Below, piece after piece: positions 13,746-46,493 of a stretch of DNA of 64,000 nucleotides. Numbering within the stretch: position 1 is the first letter of the stretch; the number at the start of each line of letters is the position of its first letter. The position numbers and the translations under genes were made by a program. The stretch spans positions 205 through 64,204 of the forward strand of contig CADAWC010000030.1 of assembly GCA_902791475.1 (NCBI GenBank), written 5' to 3'. The notes beneath the pieces are model-generated. The model was not told the origin of the DNA and ran no database searches. It saw only the letters and a program-made list of their open reading frames with translations. The DNA is from Fibrobacter succinogenes (lineage in GTDB: Bacteria > Fibrobacterota > Fibrobacteria > Fibrobacterales > Fibrobacteraceae).

Positions 13746-13853
13746 TAGGAAGTAGACAGTAGACGGTAGGAAGGAGTAATCCTCGAAGCCGTCATCTAGA
13801 AGCAGTCATCCTCAAGCTCGTCATCCTGAGGAGCAAAGCGACGAAGGACCTAG
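13744..13853. repeat. Heptamer-period array followed by tandem GTCAT-type REP units
   Basis: GTAGGAA GTAGACA GTAGACG GTAGGAA, then GTAATCCTCGAAGC / GTCATCTAGAAGC / GTCATCCTCAAGC / GTCATCCTGAGGAGCAAAGCGACGAAGGACCTAG. Confidence 0.75.
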
Positions 13854-25921: not shown

Positions 25922-28900
25922 GATTCGATACCCAAACCTTCAGAGCGCCCAAATCTGTTTTAAGCCACTGCAACAATTCCTGAGTATATACAACTTTATA
26001 TTTTTTTAGGACAACGACATGTTCAAATCCGGAATCTGCCTCCAAATGGAACACCATTTGGCACCCATGGCAGTACTCATCGGCCAAATTGGCCTTCATT
26101 TCGACATCTAGCTTGTCCAAAAATTCATCTGTCAGCATGCCGACGGTGAAATTTGCATGGATGTAATCCACCATGTCGCAACGCACGCGGTCAAGCTGAA
26201 TCACTTCTTCGACGATAATCTGGTAGCCATCGCGGTCGCGCTGCTGTTCCAAGACACCCTTCACAAGCACGCGGTCATCGACAGAAACCGTATCGCGCAA
26301 GCGTTCCCAGACGTCCTTCTTGAAGAACATTTCGATTTCACCCTGGAAATCCTGGATTGCGCCAGAGCCAATCGTATCACCGCGCTTTGTTTCGATGGAG
26401 CGCATGCGAATAACGACACCGCCCACAACAACCGTATCGCCCACATAGCGGGTGATTTCGTCTTCCGAGAGCGAGCAGCTCGTAAATCCCTGTAATTCCG
26501 GGCGGAACTCGTCAAGCGGATGCCCAGAGAGGAAAAGCCCGAGCACGCTGCGTTCCTTGTTGAGCATTTCCATCGCCGTCCATTCTTCGGCTTCTTCCAG
26601 AACTTCGGCAGTGTTCGGCATGGCGGCAGGGCCACCCAAGTCAAACAGAGAGACCTGGCCTTTGGCCTTGTCTTCCTGACTGCGCATAGCGACTTCCAAA
26701 GCGCGGTCCACTGTCGCGACCTGCACAGCACGGCTACCCGGCAAATCGTCCAAGGCGCCCGCCATGATCAAGCATTCCAAAACCTTCTTGTTAAGCGGCG
26801 GGCGTTTTTCAGGCTGGGCCGCCTGGTATTCCGTCACACGCTTGCAAAAATCAAAAATATCCTTGTAGATGCCACGACGTTCGCGTTCCGCGACCACGTC
26901 TTCGACAACAGCAATACCCACGTTGCGGATACCCGCAAGACCGTAAAGAATCTGGCCCTTCGTATTCGCCGAGAACACGCCCAAAGACGTATTGATGTTC
27001 GGCGAAAGGACTTCGATACCGAGGCGCTTGCATTCCAAAATGATGGTCACCGTATCTTCGGTCTTACCCATCTTAGAAGTCATGGATGCCGCCATGTATT
27101 CCGGACCGTAATGCGTCTTGAGGTACGCCGTCTGGTAAGCCACGTAAGCGTAAGCAGCAGCATGGCTCTTGTTAAATGCGTATCCGCAGAACGGGAGCAC
27201 GGCATCCCAGACCTTCTGGATCATCGCCTTGTCGTAGCCCTTGTCCAAGCACTTCTGGAAGAATTCCGGCTCGAGCTTCGCCATCTTTTCCGGCATCTTC
27301 TTAGCCATGATACGGCGGATGTTGTCAGCGCCACCCAGCGAGTAGCCACCCAAAATCTGGGCAAGCTTCATCACCTGTTCCTGGTACACGATAACGCCGT
27401 ACGTTTCGCCAAGCACCTGTTCCAAGTCCGGATGGTAGCAGTCAATCTCTTCCTTACCGTTCTTACGGGCAATGAAGTGCGGAATCTGGTCAATCGGCCC
27501 CGGACGGTACAGGGCGTTCATAGCGATAAGGTCAAAGATTCGGGTCGGCTTCAGTTCGCGCAGGTACTTCTGCATACCCGGAGATTCGAACTGGAACACA
27601 GTTGTCGTAAGGCCCTTGCCCAAGAGATCAAACGTTGCCTTGTCATCAATCGGAATCTTGTTCATCACAAGCTTGATGTTGCGGTTCTGTTCGACCATCT
27701 TCACCGTATCCTGAATGATGGACAAGTTGATAAGCCCAAGGAAGTCCATCTTCAAAAGTCCGATGTCTTCGGCGTAGTGCTTATCGTACATCACCACCGG
27801 CGTATCTTCCGGGGCGGCACGATACAATGGCGCAAGGTTGTAAATCGGAGTCGGCGTAATCACCACGCCGCAAGCATGCACGCCCGTCTGGCGCGGCAAA
27901 TCTTCAAGCTTTTTCGCGACTTCCCACAAGTTCTGGTAACTAGCACGGCTGTTGATCATCGCCTGCAAAGGTTCCGGGCTGTAACCGTCTTCGAGGTTGT
28001 TGCCCTTCTTGTCCTTACCCGTCCAGGCCTGCTTTAGGCTAAAGTTCAAAGTGCGCTGCGGGAATAGCTTTGTAATGCCCTTTGCTTCGGCAGGCGGAAT
28101 CCCGAGCACGCGCGCAACGTCCGTAATCACCGCCTTCGACTTGAGCATACCGTAGGTAATAATCTGGCCCACGCACTCCTTGCCGTACTTGTCCGTCACG
28201 TACTGGATCACGCGGCCACGGTCTCGGTCCGCAAAGTCCGTATCGATATCCGGCATGGACACACGTTCCGGGTTCAGGAATCGTTCAAAAAGGAGGTCGA
28301 AAGTAAGCGGGTCAATGTCGGTAATACCGATGATGTAAGTGACCAAGGAACCAGCAGCAGAACCACGCCCCGGGCCCACGGGAATGCCATGTTCACGGGA
28401 CCAGTTGATGAAGTCCCACACAATGAGCAAGTAGCCCGCAACGTTCATGTTACGGATACAGTTAAGCTCCTTGTACATGCGCTTGCCCACGTTCGTTTCG
28501 TGAGCCGGGAACTTAAAATCTTCATCGGGGAATCGCCACTTCAAGCGTTCATTGCAAAGGTGGATGATATAGATATCGGAATCGGAACCCGGTTTGCACC
28601 AGCGGTGAACGTTCTTGTCCCATGCCTTCTGATCATCGGCATCGAAGAATTCCGGCTGCGAGAGGCGGTCGATTTCTGCATTGTCCGCATCGGTCAGCGC
28701 ATCTTCGGCAATGCCTTTTTCGGCACAGTAATTTGCCTTGACCTTCTTTTTGCGGTCCTTGATGACGCCCTTGAGTTCTCGTTCGCGGACGACCGGATAT
28801 TCCGCATCGTATTCCGCCTTCATGATGGCCTTGATGTTCTGGTATTCCTCGGAAGCGAGGAATTCATCAGGAATCTTGAAACGCGGCCAGAATTCATCAC

Positions 28901-35318: not shown

Positions 35319-36128
35319 TTAAAAAGTCAATGACTCCGCCGAAATATTGTCCATTCCAAAGCGAAAAGCGCCTTTTTTGAAGAATTCTGCGGTATCAGTC
35401 GTCAAATAATGCACAGAACCACCCTTCGAAAGTCGTTTTTCCATGTCCACATGTCGCTTGAGGTAGTCCAAAGTCTTGTCGGCGACAATATCGCCCTGGA
35501 CCACCAAGCGGACGTGCGGTGGAAGTGCGGCCCGAATTTCTTCTTCGAGGAGCGGGTAATGCGTGCAGGCAAGTAAAACTGTATCGATTTCAGGGTCAGC
35601 CGCAAGCAGCTGGTCCACGTCCTTTTTCACGAAGAATCGGGCACCCTCGGTCCCGCGTTCGCCATATTCCACCAACGGAACCCACATCGGGCAGGCATGC
35701 TGCGTCACCTTCAAGTTCGGGAAAAAGTGGCTGATTTCAAGAACGTAGCTGTTCGAAGAGACCGTCCCCGCGGTGGCAAAAATGCCGATATGCCCCGTCT
35801 TCGAGAAGTTCCCAATCTCTTCGGCGGTCGGGCGGACAATGCCCAAGACGCGACGGTCCGGGAATTCTACCGGAAGCACCTGCTGCTGGATGCTGCGGAG
35901 CGCTTTTGCCGACGCCGTGTTGCAAGCGAGAATCACCAGCGGGCATCCGCGGTGGAAAAGTTCACGCACGGACTGGAGCGTGTAGCGGTAAATCGTCTCG
36001 AAACTGCGGGAGCCATACGGCGCACGGGCGTTGTCCCCCAAATACAGGTAATCGTACTGCGGGAGCGTGTGGCGAAGCTTCTGCAAAATCGTGAGCCCGC
36101 CAAAACCAGAATCAAAGACGCCGATCAT
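35319..36128 (-). CDS. murI: Glutamate racemase
   Basis: IGVFDSGFGG, GDNARAPYG, ACNTASA, LACTHYP. Confidence 0.96.
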   Translation of the reverse strand: MIGVFDSGFGGLTILQKLRHTLPQYDYLYLGDNARAPYGSRSFETIYRYTLQSVRELFHRGCPLVILACNTASAKALRSIQQQVLPVEFPDRRVLGIVRPTAEEIGNFSKTGHIGIFATAGTVSSNSYVLEISHFFPNLKVTQHACPMWVPLVEYGERGTEGARFFVKKDVDQLLAADPEIDTVLLACTHYPLLEEEIRAALPPHVRLVVQGDIVADKTLDYLKRHVDMEKRLSKGGSVHYLTTDTAEFFKKGAFRFGMDNISAESLTF

Positions 36129-38388
36129 AAGCTTCTTCCATCATTTTACGGACATACGGGAGCAGTTCGTGGCGCGGGTCCATTTCATCGCCGCCGTGAG
36201 TTTTCTTGAATTCGACCGTATCTATCGGTTCAAGAATCTTGATGTTCACCGGGTGATGCTTGGAATCCTTGCGGTGTTCCCAGAGCAAGTCAGAACCACG
36301 AGTGACCATCGGCAATATAATTGCGTTTGCCTCGACGGCAAGTCTAAAGCAACCGCTCTTGAAAGCGACCATGCCATCGCGCTTGCTGCGGGTACCTTCC
36401 GGGAAAACGAAGAGTCTCGGCATCTTGCCCGACTGGATAGCCTTTTGGATAATCGCAGCGCCGCCGCCCTTTTCGCGGTCGATAAAGACGCAACCGAGCT
36501 TGTGCATCCAGAAGTTCAGAATCGGGATGCGCTGCAACTGCGTCTTCGCGATAAAGCCCACGGTACGCTGCAAGGCCAAAAACGCAAGCGGGATATCCAG
36601 GTACGAACGGTGGTTGCCCATCACGAACACCGGGCGAGTCCAGTCCACTTTCGCAAGTTGCGCCTGGTCTTCAATCGTCAAATCCACACGCAAGACTTTC
36701 ATGCAGAAGCGGGAGAAGACCTGCACCTTTTCTTCAAGCCAAGGATCCAAGTCTTTACGACGGAAAATGTACATGAATGCAATCTTGAAAATATATTCGA
36801 GCATAAACGCAAAAATTCTTGCCGCTCCATATATCTTAAATAACATAACTGGCATATTACACTCTGTTTTTGAATTTTCCCTGGGCAAAAAACGAGACCG
36901 TTTGAGTTTCGTCAGGCGCCCTTTCCAATATCTACGTTTGCAATATAGCAAAACCAAAAAAGATTCAGCCCGCGTGACCCCGACGTAAAACAATCGGCGT
37001 TCCTCATCGAGCTGTTTTTGACGCTCTTTACGCGTGCCCAAGCATGAACCTGGCGTAAGCCCCTCGGACATTCCCGCATAATAGACCACCGCATACTGGA
37101 GCCCCTTGGACGCATGGACTGTTTCCACATGGATTCCATTTTCAAGGACTTCGCCCTCCCCCTCTACGTTACCTGCCTCCGACACGACCGTCCCTGCGAT
37201 CGGGAGATGCGCATCGCGAAGCGCTTCTTCGTAATATAGGCGTTGCCTATTATAGCGCACGAGGATTGCAAAGTTTTTCCATTGGAGGTCATAACTTTCG
37301 CGGAGCAACTTGATGCTCGTGATGATTTTTTGCATTTCTTCGACAGGGTCTTCACTCACCCAGATTTCGGGTTCACGGTTTTCCTTAAAAATCGGCGAGC
37401 CGCCCGAGCCATTCATGTTGCCCGCACGCAAGACCTTCCGCAAGTGGATAGGCTTGTTTTCAAAAATCCTATTCGAAAAATGTAAAATGTTCGCGACCGA
37501 ACGATAATTCCATTCCAAGCGAATCAGAGAGCTCTCCTTGAAGTCATCGCGGAAACGGTTGATATTCCCGATATCGGCCCCACGGAATCCGTAAATGGCC
37601 TGGTCATCATCGCCCACAACAAACAACGACTTGCGCTCACCCAGCAGCGCTTTGACGAGTCGGTACTGCGACGGGTTGATGTCCTGATATTCATCGACAA
37701 GAATTTCGGTCCATTGATTTTGGAAATATGCGCGCGCCGACTCGTGATTTTCGAGCAAGTTTATCGCCTGGTAGATGAGGTCTTCGAAGACGACTTGACC
37801 CGATTCCAAGATGCGATTATGCAATGGTTCAAGTTTTTTGAGGAGCTTCGCGGGATGTGCATCCGAGAAAAGCTCTTCGCGCGAGAAGCGGAATTTTCGA
37901 CCGCCGAAACGCCTCCCGACTTTTGCGAGTTCCTGCATAAACGATTTGTCCGACGATTCCGTCGGGACCGGCATTTTCTTGAATCCGACAAGTTCGTACG
38001 CCGGGCAAGAGCTGCAAGCGCCCGCCCCACCTGTCATCCCGGATTCATTCCGGGATCGCCATTCTTCATCATGTTTAACAGTAACCTTAGATTTAAGAAT
38101 AAACAGCGCAAGCGAGTGGAATGTGCAGAGCCGCACACCCGCATTCGGGAAGAGCTTTTGCACACGTTCCCGCATTTCGGCTGCAGCCTTCGCCGTAAAC
38201 GTGAGCGCCAAGATTTTCTCGGGTTCAACGCCCGACATAATCCGGTACTGGATTCGCTTGGTCAAGACCGAAGTCTTTCCCGAACCTGCCCCTGCTAAAA
38301 TTAAAAGTTGTCCGTTCTTTTCATGATCGTGGAGTACCGCCGCACGTTGGTCGGAGTTCAACCCGACCAAAAGACTTTCTACATCCAT
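36112..38388 (-). CDS. Fusion: compact UvrD/Rep SF1A helicase + 1-acyl-sn-glycerol-3-phosphate acyltransferase (PlsC)
   Basis: AGAGSGKT, TFTAKAA, DEYQD, GDDDQAIYGFRGA, NYRS, TVHASKGLQY, EERRLFYVGVTRAE; then NHRSYLD, FIAK, FIDR, FPEGTRS in the same frame. Confidence 0.88.
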   Translation of the reverse strand: MDVESLLVGLNSDQRAAVLHDHEKNGQLLILAGAGSGKTSVLTKRIQYRIMSGVEPEKILALTFTAKAAAEMRERVQKLFPNAGVRLCTFHSLALFILKSKVTVKHDEEWRSRNESGMTGGAGACSSCPAYELVGFKKMPVPTESSDKSFMQELAKVGRRFGGRKFRFSREELFSDAHPAKLLKKLEPLHNRILESGQVVFEDLIYQAINLLENHESARAYFQNQWTEILVDEYQDINPSQYRLVKALLGERKSLFVVGDDDQAIYGFRGADIGNINRFRDDFKESSLIRLEWNYRSVANILHFSNRIFENKPIHLRKVLRAGNMNGSGGSPIFKENREPEIWVSEDPVEEMQKIITSIKLLRESYDLQWKNFAILVRYNRQRLYYEEALRDAHLPIAGTVVSEAGNVEGEGEVLENGIHVETVHASKGLQYAVVYYAGMSEGLTPGSCLGTRKERQKQLDEERRLFYVGVTRAESFLVLLYCKRRYWKGRLTKLKRSRFLPRENSKTECNMPVMLFKIYGAARIFAFMLEYIFKIAFMYIFRRKDLDPWLEEKVQVFSRFCMKVLRVDLTIEDQAQLAKVDWTRPVFVMGNHRSYLDIPLAFLALQRTVGFIAKTQLQRIPILNFWMHKLGCVFIDREKGGGAAIIQKAIQSGKMPRLFVFPEGTRSKRDGMVAFKSGCFRLAVEANAIILPMVTRGSDLLWEHRKDSKHHPVNIKILEPIDTVEFKKTHGGDEMDPRHELLPYVRKMMEEAYDRRL

Positions 38389-41418: not shown

Positions 41419-41524
41419 GTAGGAAGTAGACGAGAGACGAGAGACGAGAGACGAAAGACGAGAGATTGTAATTAGAAACGCACTTGTCATCCTGAGCGAA
41501 GTGTAACAAAGTCGAAGGACCTAG
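41419..41524. repeat. (AGACGAR)5 heptamer array plus GTCATCCTGAGCGAAG REP-like element
   Basis: AGACGAG x3, AGACGAA, AGACGAG at 41428-41462; GTCATCCTGAGCGAAGTGTAACAAAGTCGAAGGACCTAG at 41486. Confidence 0.8.
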
Positions 41525-43931: not shown

Positions 43932-44004
<73 letters not shown>

Positions 44005-44402: not shown

Positions 44403-44475
<73 letters not shown>

Positions 44476-45024: not shown

Positions 45025-46218
45025 TTACTCCAATTTTACACAGCGAACGGAAGACCCACGAATTTTAGCCGCTTTGTTATTCCTGGTAGGACCATAATCA
45101 CCATCTGATGCAACAAAACCGGAATGAACATGAGAATTTTCTTTCCCTTCGAATTCCTCAGGAAGAAACCAATACTCACCACCTCTTAAATCTTCAAACT
45201 TTCCCTCAGAGGACCTTAATCCAGCACCGGTTAGGGATAAGCCACTATAATTATTCCCCGCAAAGCCATAGGATGAACGAGTCCCCCGAATTCCATACGA
45301 ATTCGTTTCAGCATGCCAAGCGATGTAAAAATCCAGGTCGGTCATCAATCGCCAGCCCTCAGGGCAAATGCCTCGATGATTTTCTTCAATTAAATCAGCA
45401 CAGCTTTCGGTATTGCAACGGCTCGGCAACTGCATCATTTCGGCCCACTGGTAAAGCCCACCAAATTCATCACACTTGGTGGTGTCATTGTTGTAGCAAT
45501 AACGTTCAATCACTTTATCATCTTTTTGGTCTTCTGTACCAAGAACCATCTTGCCGATATTCAAGTTTTCGGCCATAATGGTCACGGAATCCTTTTTACC
45601 TAGATAATCTTCCCCAATAATTTTTATGTAATAGTAACTACGGCCATTGCGCGGGTCGGTAAATTGCTTGTATTTTCCTTCACCACCTACACGCCAATCT
45701 TCAGCCAAGGTTTTTGAATGATCGAAAGGCACATACTCGCTGCTAGAGGAATCGTCATTGCGAGAGCTCGAAGAGCTCGTGGCAATCACCTTACTACTAG
45801 AGGAGGATTGCTTACTGCTACTGCTCAGGATGACGGAAGAAGAAGAAACCGTCTTGACGGAAGACGACGAAGCAATCTTTTGGCTAGAACTTGATGGATC
45901 CCCTTCGCTTCGCTTCGAGGATGACGATAAGGCTTTATTCGAAGATGACGATTTCACGTCATTGCGAGGAGTCGAAGAGGACGAAGCAATCTTTTTACTA
46001 CTACTTGAAAGGCGATTCCCGCTTGAAGCGGGAATGACAGATGAAGAGGACGAAGACGACACATTATCGTCATTCGCGGAAGTACCGCTGTCGCCGCCGC
46101 AGGCGGCAAGGGCTATGGTAAGAAGAAATGTAAGGAAAAATCGTATGGATCCCCTACGCTTCGCTTCGAGGATGACTGGTCGAGAAAGACATTTCGCCGT
46201 TGCTTCAAAATTTCTCAT
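45025..46218 (-). CDS. FISUMP (Fibrobacter succinogenes major paralogous domain) lipoprotein
   Basis: RBS AAGGAG, lipobox LAAC, Ser-rich linker, FTDPRNGRSY, MAENLN, FGGLYQW, RGICPEGWR, SVRCVK. Confidence 0.92.
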   Translation of the reverse strand: MRNFEATAKCLSRPVILEAKRRGSIRFFLTFLLTIALAACGGDSGTSANDDNVSSSSSSSVIPASSGNRLSSSSKKIASSSSTPRNDVKSSSSNKALSSSSKRSEGDPSSSSQKIASSSSVKTVSSSSVILSSSSKQSSSSSKVIATSSSSSRNDDSSSSEYVPFDHSKTLAEDWRVGGEGKYKQFTDPRNGRSYYYIKIIGEDYLGKKDSVTIMAENLNIGKMVLGTEDQKDDKVIERYCYNNDTTKCDEFGGLYQWAEMMQLPSRCNTESCADLIEENHRGICPEGWRLMTDLDFYIAWHAETNSYGIRGTRSSYGFAGNNYSGLSLTGAGLRSSEGKFEDLRGGEYWFLPEEFEGKENSHVHSGFVASDGDYGPTRNNKAAKIRGSSVRCVKLE

Positions 46219-46420
46219 TCTGTACTCCTTTTTCTGCAGCATGTGCTATTTTCACACGCTGCAGACCTCATCCATATACCCAATTGCACGATAAAATAGA
46301 AAAAAGCTACATGTAACAATTCATCCAGTCAAAGAATTATCGCGCATAAAATTTTTTCACTTTTTTCGGCACTCACCCCTTTATAACTACTAATTTTATT
46401 TCTATATATGGGTCACCCTC

Positions 46421-46493
<73 letters not shown>

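Follow-up and report, generated by a model that had tools for sequence, protein, structure and literature searches.

The 5' third of a FISUMP lipoprotein gene (45025-46218, minus strand) in a 64,000-nucleotide stretch of Fibrobacter succinogenes DNA (assembly GCA_902791475.1, contig CADAWC010000030.1, positions 205 to 64,204 of the forward strand; hereafter the window) carries five intact GTCAT-hairpin-ATC elements and two decayed ones, in two orientations and two phases. We consider it likely that these palindromes are copies of a CGTC/TGTC-tagged, Ssn-type hairpin family with about 500 copies in the genome, that they entered the translated signal peptide and linker as units, and that relatives of the gene differ by repeat-containing modules. 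The stop-free copies appear to be translated: they provide the signal peptide with basic residues and make up half of the linker behind it. Their sharp borders and unrelated flanks indicate that they probably entered the 5' third of the gene, or were carried into it, as discrete units. A single open reading frame (ORF) with conserved start and lipobox spans the copies, and the indels found in relatives all preserve the frame.

The FISUMP gene and its repeat copies

The protein has 397 residues from the likely start MRNF (the longest ORF starts at 46242). The start ATG at 46216-46218 lies seven bases 3' of AAGGAG, and this Shine-Dalgarno and start stretch is kept in homologues from other species. 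In profile searches the ORF at 45025-46242 scored 60.7 bits with TIGR02145 (cut-off 41.65) and 47.5 bits with PF09603 (cut-off 33.9). The order in the protein is signal peptide, Ser-rich linker and FISUMP domain, all encoded on the minus strand. The lipoprotein signal peptide, MRNFEATAKCLSRPVILEAKRRGSIRFFLTFLLTIALAAC (46099-46218), was recognized in the sequence by eye rather than by a predictor, from its hydrophobic core followed by LAAC, the lipobox residue Cys40 being encoded at 46099-46101. The Ser-rich linker of the mature protein has 120 residues (45739-46098), and 181 of its 360 nt are derived from repeats. The FISUMP domain occupies 45034-45666, where TIGR02145 aligns to residues 193-403 of the 405-residue ORF. 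A public collection contains a protein (P0001) identical to the one encoded in the window.

The five intact elements were pointed out in an earlier note made from the DNA letters, and a re-reading of the sequence confirmed the coordinates and the encoded peptides of all five. E1 (46147-46176, minus strand), a sense copy of the ATCCTC class with the sequence GTCATCCTCGAAGCGAAGCGTAGGGGATCC, is read in phase 0 as VILEAKRRGS and forms the positively charged part of the signal peptide. There is no in-frame ATG, GTG or TTG in the interval between E1 and the hydrophobic core, and translation of E1 is therefore required for the signal to exist. E2 (46014-46038, minus strand; GTCATTCCCGCTTCAAGCGGGAATC) is likewise sense and in phase 0, encodes VIPASSGN and has a perfect 9-bp stem; its core, the loop excepted, fits the consensus of the Neisseria repeat NTS. 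E4 (45896-45925, minus strand) is a second sense copy of the E1 unit, read as SSSKRSEGD in a phase different from that of E1. The earlier note, which placed this element at 45897, had taken it for the 46147 element in another frame, and the 97% identity of the two across 32 nt bears this out. The similarity of E4 to E1 and to intergenic copies ends at GTCAT and at GGATCCAT, so that E4 is a separate unit and no part of a larger duplication. The other two intact copies belong to the ATTGC class and lie on the plus strand, antisense to the gene. E3 (45958-45991; GTCATTGCGAGGAGTCGAAGAGGACGAAGCAATC) gives IASSSSTPRND, and a copy of it is also present in the orthologue L033 and in the homologous loci L006 and L008. 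E5 (45754-45787; GTCATTGCGAGAGCTCGAAGAGCTCGTGGCAATC), which gives IATSSSSSRND, represents a linker-specialist subtype.

Two more copies, both listed on the minus strand, have decayed. E6 (45806-45834; GTCATCCTGAGC..., encoding VILSSSSKQS) is an ATCCT-class element truncated at its 3' end with no hairpin remaining; the 15 nt absent from it (CAGTAGCGAAGGATC) are retained in homologues from genomes G005 (L008) and G017 (L006), where the head is mutated. E7 (45849-45877; GATTGCTTCG..., encoding KIASSSSVKTV) is the head-less remnant of an antisense ATTGC-class copy; the tails of E7 and E3 are direct repeats of each other. Predicted RNA hairpin energies are -16.5 kcal/mol for E5 (z = -4.0), -13.6 kcal/mol for E2 (z = -4.7), -8.5 kcal/mol for E1 and -5.0 kcal/mol for E3, whose inner stem has decayed. 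Such uneven stem strength, with E2 and E5 very stable and E3, E6 and E7 decayed, argues against uniform selection for structure.

Enrichment in Ser-rich linkers

The N-terminal part of the focal gene holds 5 copies, versus 0.013 after shuffling of the codon order and 0.061 after synonymous resampling (2000 trials each). The enrichment over codon-shuffled Ser-rich sequence, by which the earlier note had proposed to judge the repeats, is thus strong. In the Ser-rich coding segments of the genome (33.9 kb), 13 copies are found versus 0.55-0.81 expected. The post-cysteine linkers of 23 homologous loci of other species (9.2 kb) contain 23 copies versus 0.17 expected, and 16 of these 23 loci carry at least one copy in the linker. 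Nowhere else in the genome are the elements packed as closely as in the focal cluster, which has 5 copies in 423 nt against 3 in the cluster ranked second. The idea that repeats are a source of linker variation in this lipoprotein family is supported by the analysis, although only for the FISUMP subset with Ser-rich linkers: 8 of the 55 FISUMP reading frames in this genome have an affected linker.

It could be argued that the resemblance to repeats is a by-product of Ser codon composition (TCG, AGC, TCT, TCC), or that the N-terminal region is non-coding. Repeat loops such as CGAAG do give Ser codons on the other strand, and, as is common in low-complexity DNA, the strand opposite the N-terminal region also has an open frame of 178 aa. 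However, shuffles and synonymous resampling almost never yield even one element, which rules out a chance resemblance of Ser codons, and the ORF, start, lipobox and frame are conserved across species with all indels in frame. Near-identical units are also present between genes. The codon shuffles and these intergenic units already refute the argument, to which we attach a very low probability.

A repeat family of the whole genome

With an element defined as GTC, a stem that opens with AT and has 5 bp or more, a loop, the complement and C, in this order, 497 sites were found in the 3.86-Mb genome versus 24 in the reversed genome. The elements have a common layout, with (T/C)GTC as the 5' tag, a stem opening with AT, an inner hairpin that varies and, at the 3' end, a short tail (CCA or CTCC), and they fall into classes with mutually complementary stems (ATGCC, ATCCT, ATTCC, ATTGC, ATTCT and ATCCC). 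The base 5' of GTCAT is T in 332 of 542 cases (61%) and C in 143 (26%), together 88%, and in the ATTGC class the tag is CGTC in 41 of 53 copies. When the genome was scanned without the AT requirement, 183 of 276 perfect 7-bp hairpins after GTC opened with AT; the commonest 12-mers after GTCAT agree with an AT-first stem. An 8-bp stem is present in 189 of the 497 elements, and the ATGCC, ATTCC and ATCCC classes have a stem of 8-9 bp with a loop of 4-5 nt. The ATTGC and ATCCT classes, to which E1 and E3-E5 belong, combine an outer stem of 5-6 bp with an internal loop and an inner hairpin that varies. Elements of the ATCCT and ATTCT classes most often have a CCA tail, which in the ATTGC class ranks second, after CTA; the tails of the ATGCC and ATTCC classes are CTC(C) or CGC, not CCA.

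Element density is approximately 0.78 per kb in intergenic DNA, 0.38 per kb in Ser-rich coding DNA and 0.054 per kb in other coding DNA. The elements are over-represented between convergent genes and between tandem genes and under-represented between divergent ones, and those in tandem gene pairs are mostly co-oriented with transcription. Pairs of neighbouring elements are arranged head-to-tail in 21 cases, tail-to-tail in 17 and head-to-head in 9. Among copies of the same type, the similarity extends exactly from GTCAT to GGATCCAT or GCAATC, and these sharp borders hold inside genes and between genes alike. Because identity ends at the element borders, the copies are discrete units. The type represented by E1 and E4 is a generalist, present in 29 of 81 genomes of the genus with up to ~25 copies per genome; of 31 copies sampled, 25 are not spanned by an ORF, and identical or near-identical copies of E1 are intergenic in the present genome. 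The intergenic relatives noticed earlier near 1263, 13820 and 41486 proved to be genuine members of the family.

A 7-nt tandem repeat, (GACGAGA)n, occupies 41428-41465 of the window directly upstream of the intergenic element at 41486, and 'agacgaga' runs also stand ahead of elements elsewhere, for example on contigs C6 and C8. At 13795-13850 a row of bare element heads (cgtcatctagaagca gtcatcctcaagctc gtcatcctgagg...) is followed by one complete element and resembles repeated partial copies. No Rfam family fits the elements, and the Rfam matches in the window are three tRNAs only. The three tRNA genes lie around the FISUMP gene, at 43932-44004, 44403-44475 and 46421-46493 (+); two of them are probably duplicates, because they have equal scores and share the spurious ORF peptide MGHPRGNSSVGRARPCQGRGRGSESLFP. 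A literature search on Fibrobacter repetitive extragenic palindromic (REP) sequences, FISUMP and the literal element sequence returned nothing relevant.

Variation of the FISUMP gene among relatives

A syntenic orthologue, L033, is located between sodium:solute symporter and radical-SAM genes in the NCBI metagenome-assembled genome GCA_034186935.1, and its DNA is near-identical to the window across most of the linker. In its signal-peptide region a degenerate ATTGC-class element, set between near-identical flanks, replaces the ATCCTC-class E1 of the window. There is no start codon 3' of the signal-peptide repeat in either version, and the repeats of both are therefore translated. Altogether four signal-peptide cassettes are found in the subfamily, and in one and the same position, directly behind the start codon, each has a different repeat class.

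The linker varies as well. In the allele L031, 114 nt are deleted exactly between the direct GATTGCTTCGTC tails of E3 and E7, and these direct repeats mediated the deletion. In L032 and L034 the E3-E4-E7 block is replaced by an element GTCATGCCGGA...TCCGGCATC that is read as GDAGTESGMT, and L034 has additional, different elements further downstream. The E2 homologue of L031 has mutations in head and stem, and a paralogue on contig C31 has a stem mismatch. The N-terminal parts of close homologues vary from 93 to 181 aa in length, and their identity is decoupled from that of the domain (N-terminal part/domain: 98%/78% in P0003, 56%/98% in P0014, 90%/61% in P0060). Between species, the nucleotide identity of the linkers is ~93-95% over the shared stretch, versus an amino-acid identity of 55-57% for the domains. 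Several module borders fall at element ends.

Unit-sized insertions in other genes

Indels of REP size between orthologues, expected by the earlier note, are found as 30-nt differences in a GSCFA-like gene but not in the FISUMP linker itself, where the indels are module-sized and look recombinational rather than like single fresh insertions. The GSCFA-like gene (C74:6022-7149, plus strand; locus L036) is single-copy and contains two antisense, in-frame ATTGC-class elements, a simple one read as IASPSARND and a composite one read as IASPGSHAPLGVSVARND. Its orthologues from 30 other genomes of the genus are well aligned around both sites. At site 1, exactly 30 nt are missing from G017, the simple element is present in G005 and the composite one in G023, and most other species have nothing; at site 2, there are no, simple, double or compound elements depending on the lineage. 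The gene shows the pattern of the Rickettsia palindromic elements (RPEs), produced here by the repeat family of the FISUMP gene. At the second site, several orthologues are split or interrupted by an in-frame stop.

Two other coding copies were observed. A GTCATCCCGGATTCATTCCGGGATC element at 38033-38057 (+) of the window lies antisense and in frame inside the ORF at 36112-38388 (-), which combines UvrD and acyltransferase parts; it encodes RSRNESGMT, approximately residues 111-119, in the N-terminal UvrD-helicase domain. Repair helicases with intragenic REPs are a theme of PMC3733652. A glycoside-hydrolase-like lipoprotein (C41:25185-26853, minus strand) has an E5-type repeat in its linker (WIATNSSSSRND) and an apparent frame change at ~26400-26480, which may be a frameshift, a sign of a pseudogene or an assembly error.

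A repeat subtype confined to coding linkers

The E5 sequence, with up to 3 mismatches allowed, is present in 19 of the 81 genomes of the genus. All 34 copies lie in Ser-rich coding linkers, all of them antisense and read as IAT(S/N)SSSSRND. The protein contexts number at least 15 and include several FISUMP subfamilies, the glycoside-hydrolase-like lipoprotein and internal linkers of other proteins; the flanks of the copies diverge at the element borders. In the frame used, the inner stem-loop GAGCTC-TTC-GAGCTC gives five serines; of the six possible frames, one has a stop and the others give basic or hydrophobic peptides. The exclusive use of the poly-Ser frame thus points to selection on the peptide or to spread via recombination between linkers. 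The main variant GAACTC/GAGTTC differs from GAGCTC/GAGCTC by a compensatory pair.

Small GIY-YIG genes flanked by the repeats

Ssn nucleases, which are small single-domain GIY-YIG proteins, bind the NTS repeat of Neisseria, CGTCATTCCCGCGMAVGCGGGAATCYRG, and the related Ssn-related motifs (SRM) in the form of single-stranded DNA and cut close to them; the genes for these Ssn proteins are typically bracketed by NTS/SRM repeats (Chenal et al. 2025, Nat Commun, PMC11893778). The present genome has three intact small GIY-YIG (Ssn-like) genes and one fragment. Two of the genes, C4:5436-5723 and C27:35214-35495, encode proteins of 96-111 aa with one Pfam GIY-YIG domain each, the former with ATTGC-class elements on both sides and the latter flanked by ATTCC- and ATGCC-class elements. 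The third intact gene is at C27:24443-24730, and the fragment, C7:89197-89334, is flanked by the ATCCTGGAG/ATTCTGGAG class. Since each small GIY-YIG gene is bracketed by a different hairpin class, the arrangement suggests several nuclease-repeat pairs in one genome. No match for the small GIY-YIG proteins was found in PDB or NCBIfam.

In 12 other genomes of the phylum 13 homologues are present, and each of them is flanked by elements on either side at a distance of up to 400 nt. Among 80 homologues from many phyla, a GTCAT hairpin lies within 600 nt of 70, versus 0 of 80 in the reversed control, and hairpins are found on both sides of 47; beside some homologues in other phyla there are exact NTS-core hairpins. 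Homologues of 50-60% identity occur in Rickettsiales, Devosia, Rhizobium, Novosphingobium, Rhodopseudomonas and Thioalkalivibrio. Across the loci L144-L223, which include members of the candidate phyla radiation, Rickettsiales, Legionellales, Bacteroidota and Cyanobacteria, the small GIY-YIG protein is likewise 50-60% identical and the flanks nearly always carry GTCATTGCGAG... or GTCATTCCCGCG... hairpins. Identity at this level over very distant phyla, together with the hairpins in the flanks, suggests that gene and repeat may have spread horizontally as one unit. In 81 genomes of the phylum, the gene goes along with a high element count: a strong GIY-YIG homologue is present in 17 of the 28 genomes in which the pattern matched 20 times or more, versus 7 of the 53 with fewer matches.

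Weighing the explanations

If the palindromes did enter the FISUMP gene as units of the hairpin family, insertions would be purged from most coding DNA and would persist in disordered Ser-rich tethers and in the n-regions of signal peptides, where 8-12 extra polar residues could be harmless. Copies, once present, could spread among linkers via recombination and unit-level mobility, and the direct repeats derived from them, as well as the shared units, may promote unequal and inter-allelic recombination. The outcome would be length and sequence diversity of surface-lipoprotein tethers.

Several points weigh against this explanation. No fresh insertion was caught in the FISUMP linker; the differences there are module replacements, which homologous recombination alone could yield. 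The FISUMP domain, which is free of repeats, is also mosaic, so that recombination is not confined to the repeats; for the same reason, the notion that the repeats mark every recombination breakpoint was ruled out. Several alleles come from metagenome contigs (k141 assemblies), in which chimerism across near-identical linkers could have arisen, although comparable differences are seen in species-representative genomes and in the C31 paralogue. The gene map is a crude longest-ORF map, which makes the genome-wide numbers for coding and intergenic DNA approximate. For the association of repeat count with the nuclease gene, the Fisher P of 2e-5 ignores phylogeny. The published SRM search string matched 60 sites versus 13 in the control and 0 of the 5 focal copies; it was set aside as a detector that is too narrow for the Fibrobacter classes. 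The link of the Fibrobacter GIY-YIG proteins to Ssn is drawn by analogy from their domain, their size and the flanking repeats.

One alternative, which we regard as unlikely, is that there is no unit mobility inside genes and that homologous recombination or gene conversion between Ser-rich linkers was the only route by which a few ancient, repeat-bearing linker modules spread. Frame and orientation would then be preserved automatically, and the specialist E5 subtype, always in one frame and one orientation, is consistent with this. The interspecies linker identity, far above what the amino-acid identity of the domains would lead one to expect, and the decoupling of the N-terminal part from the domain also speak for such exchange. 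However, the flanks of the E5 subtype diverge immediately at both borders in its unrelated protein contexts, E1 and E4 are one unit in two phases with unrelated flanks, and the GSCFA-like gene has 30-nt presence/absence differences as well as different element types at the same site; all of this argues for movement of single units.

The hairpins could instead be kept for a role at the RNA or DNA level, be it slowed translation after the start codon that aids signal-peptide targeting, mRNA stability, or programmed Ssn cut sites bordering exchanged cassettes, with the peptides as a by-product. The perfect stems of E2 and E5, with z values of about -4 to -5, would fit such a role, as would the four signal-peptide cassettes with their different repeat classes in the same position, the element density in homologue linkers (2.5 per kb, higher than the intergenic value) and the module borders at element ends. 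In 17 distinct variants of the E3/E5 type, 93% of cells pair, and three inner-stem pairs have changed on both sides; the two main E5 variants are compensatory. A compensatory change may, however, be one event inherited by many copies, so that the covariation evidence for hairpin selection is modest and may rest on a single event. Uncompensated decay is seen in the weak E3, the truncated E6 and E7, the E2 homologue of L031 and the mismatch of the C31 paralogue, and mosaic breakpoints also occur inside the repeat-free domain. We find a structural role of this kind quite improbable as the main explanation.

The unit-entry explanation can be carried further, into a proposal that we make tentatively and hold to be rather doubtful. 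The Ssn-type hairpins in linkers and signal peptides may be more than tolerated passengers: E5 would represent a coding-adapted lineage that propagates within Ser-rich linker DNA, and with the resident Ssn-like nucleases the copies could serve as single-stranded DNA cut or recombination sites through which signal, linker and domain cassettes are exchanged between paralogues and strains. If true, this would be a repeat-guided system for diversifying cell-surface proteins, in which an inner stem spells poly-Ser yet stays a perfect palindrome.

Significance

Intragenic REPs (RPEs, PMC3733652) and the Ssn/SRM system (2025) are established. New are the host phylum, the concentration of the repeats in Ser-rich tethers and signal peptides of surface lipoproteins, up to the densest cluster of the genome, the alternative cassettes for the signal peptide that differ in repeat class, and the linker-only subtype of fixed frame. 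The literature search found no paper describing repeats in Fibrobacter tethers or signal peptides, alternative cassettes or a linker-only subtype. REP-type hairpins, which are usually viewed as intergenic, are here raw material for protein, making up half of a tether and the charge of an export signal; they are a clear example of selfish or regulatory repeat DNA turned into protein sequence. The case ties Ssn nucleases and their hairpin targets to a cellulolytic phylum of gut and rumen and to the diversification of a surface-lipoprotein family, and it makes Fibrobacter a natural system for the effects of hairpins and nucleases on recombination. It is also a warning for annotation, as hairpin repeats in Fibrobacter ORFs can lead to errors in the choice of start codons, in assembly and in the alignment of orthologues.

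Comparison with known repeat systems

The CGTC-tagged REP superfamily is defined by a CGTC or TGTC tag, A-T-first stems of 8-9 bp with a loop of 4-5 nt, and a short unpaired tail that is mostly CCA; it has no dedicated transposase (PMC3733652). Its members include RPE-4 and RPE-6 of R. conorii and dRS3 of Neisseria, and intragenic copies and clusters encoding tens of residues are already known in it (Di Nocera, De Gregorio, Rocco 2013, PMC3733652). The Fibrobacter family fits into this superfamily by its sequence features, namely the CGTC/TGTC tag, the AT-first stem and, in the ATCCT and ATTCT classes, a tail that is most often CCA. Here too, the elements flank no transposase gene, and copies prefer sites between convergent or unidirectional genes. 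The analogy with Rickettsia palindromic elements drawn in the earlier note is thereby borne out and is closer than an analogy, because the elements fall under the very definition that contains RPE-4 and RPE-6; this link is made via the shared CGTC tag of PMC3733652. In contrast to the superfamily as described, Fibrobacterota lies outside the five phyla of that study, and head-to-head dimers are not predominant, a feature that is a tendency of the superfamily outside its definition. The reported intragenic cases are mainly in replication and repair genes, whereas lipoprotein tethers and signal peptides are affected here, and no coding-only lineage comparable to the E5 subtype was described there.

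The REP and REPIN sequences of E. coli and Pseudomonas are likewise short, tagged, abundant palindromes located at the 3' ends of genes and in intergenic DNA, with subfamilies that have compensatory stems. However, their tag is GTAG instead of (C/T)GTC, and they are associated with RAYT, which has no equivalent here. A genome search with PF01797 gave one match, C12:10089-10445, with no GTCAT element within ~2 kb. The corresponding gene (C12:10065-10517, plus strand) is the sole Y1 transposase gene; it is IS200-like and has unrelated flanking hairpins of its own. A RAYT-driven REPIN system was ruled out, as this transposase is IS200-like and unflanked by the elements.

Rickettsia are obligate intracellular bacteria with reduced genomes, and their RPE-1 is ~100-150 bp long. 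As reportedly found by Ogata et al. in 2000, RPE-1 palindromic repeats lie in frame in protein genes of Rickettsia, are translated, are tolerated at the protein surface and are present or absent between orthologues. The Fibrobacter copies resemble them as in-frame, stop-free insertions that are present or absent between orthologues, as in the GSCFA-like gene, the FISUMP linkers and the UvrD helicase of the window. RPE-1 is longer and of another sequence family, and the Fibrobacter insertions differ by their concentration in low-complexity linkers of paralogous lipoproteins.

By analogy, the Fibrobacter family appears to be the counterpart of NTS/dRS3 of Neisseria and of other Ssn-related motifs. 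In both Neisseria and Fibrobacter a directional (C/T)GTCAT tag precedes a hairpin, and E2 and the ATTCC class share the NTS core ATTCCCGC...GCGGGAATC outside the loop. Both have hundreds of copies, small single-domain GIY-YIG genes bracketed by repeats, and repeats clustering at surface-protein genes, with the adjoining genes unusually variable. Most Fibrobacter classes (ATTGC, ATCCT and ATCCTGGAG) differ from SRM in their short outer stem, their internal loop and an inner hairpin that varies, and they fail the SRM string. The location of the copies differs as well: merely 2% of the NTS in N. meningitidis are intragenic (PMC11893778), whereas in Fibrobacter the densest cluster lies within a gene and one subtype is found in coding linkers only.

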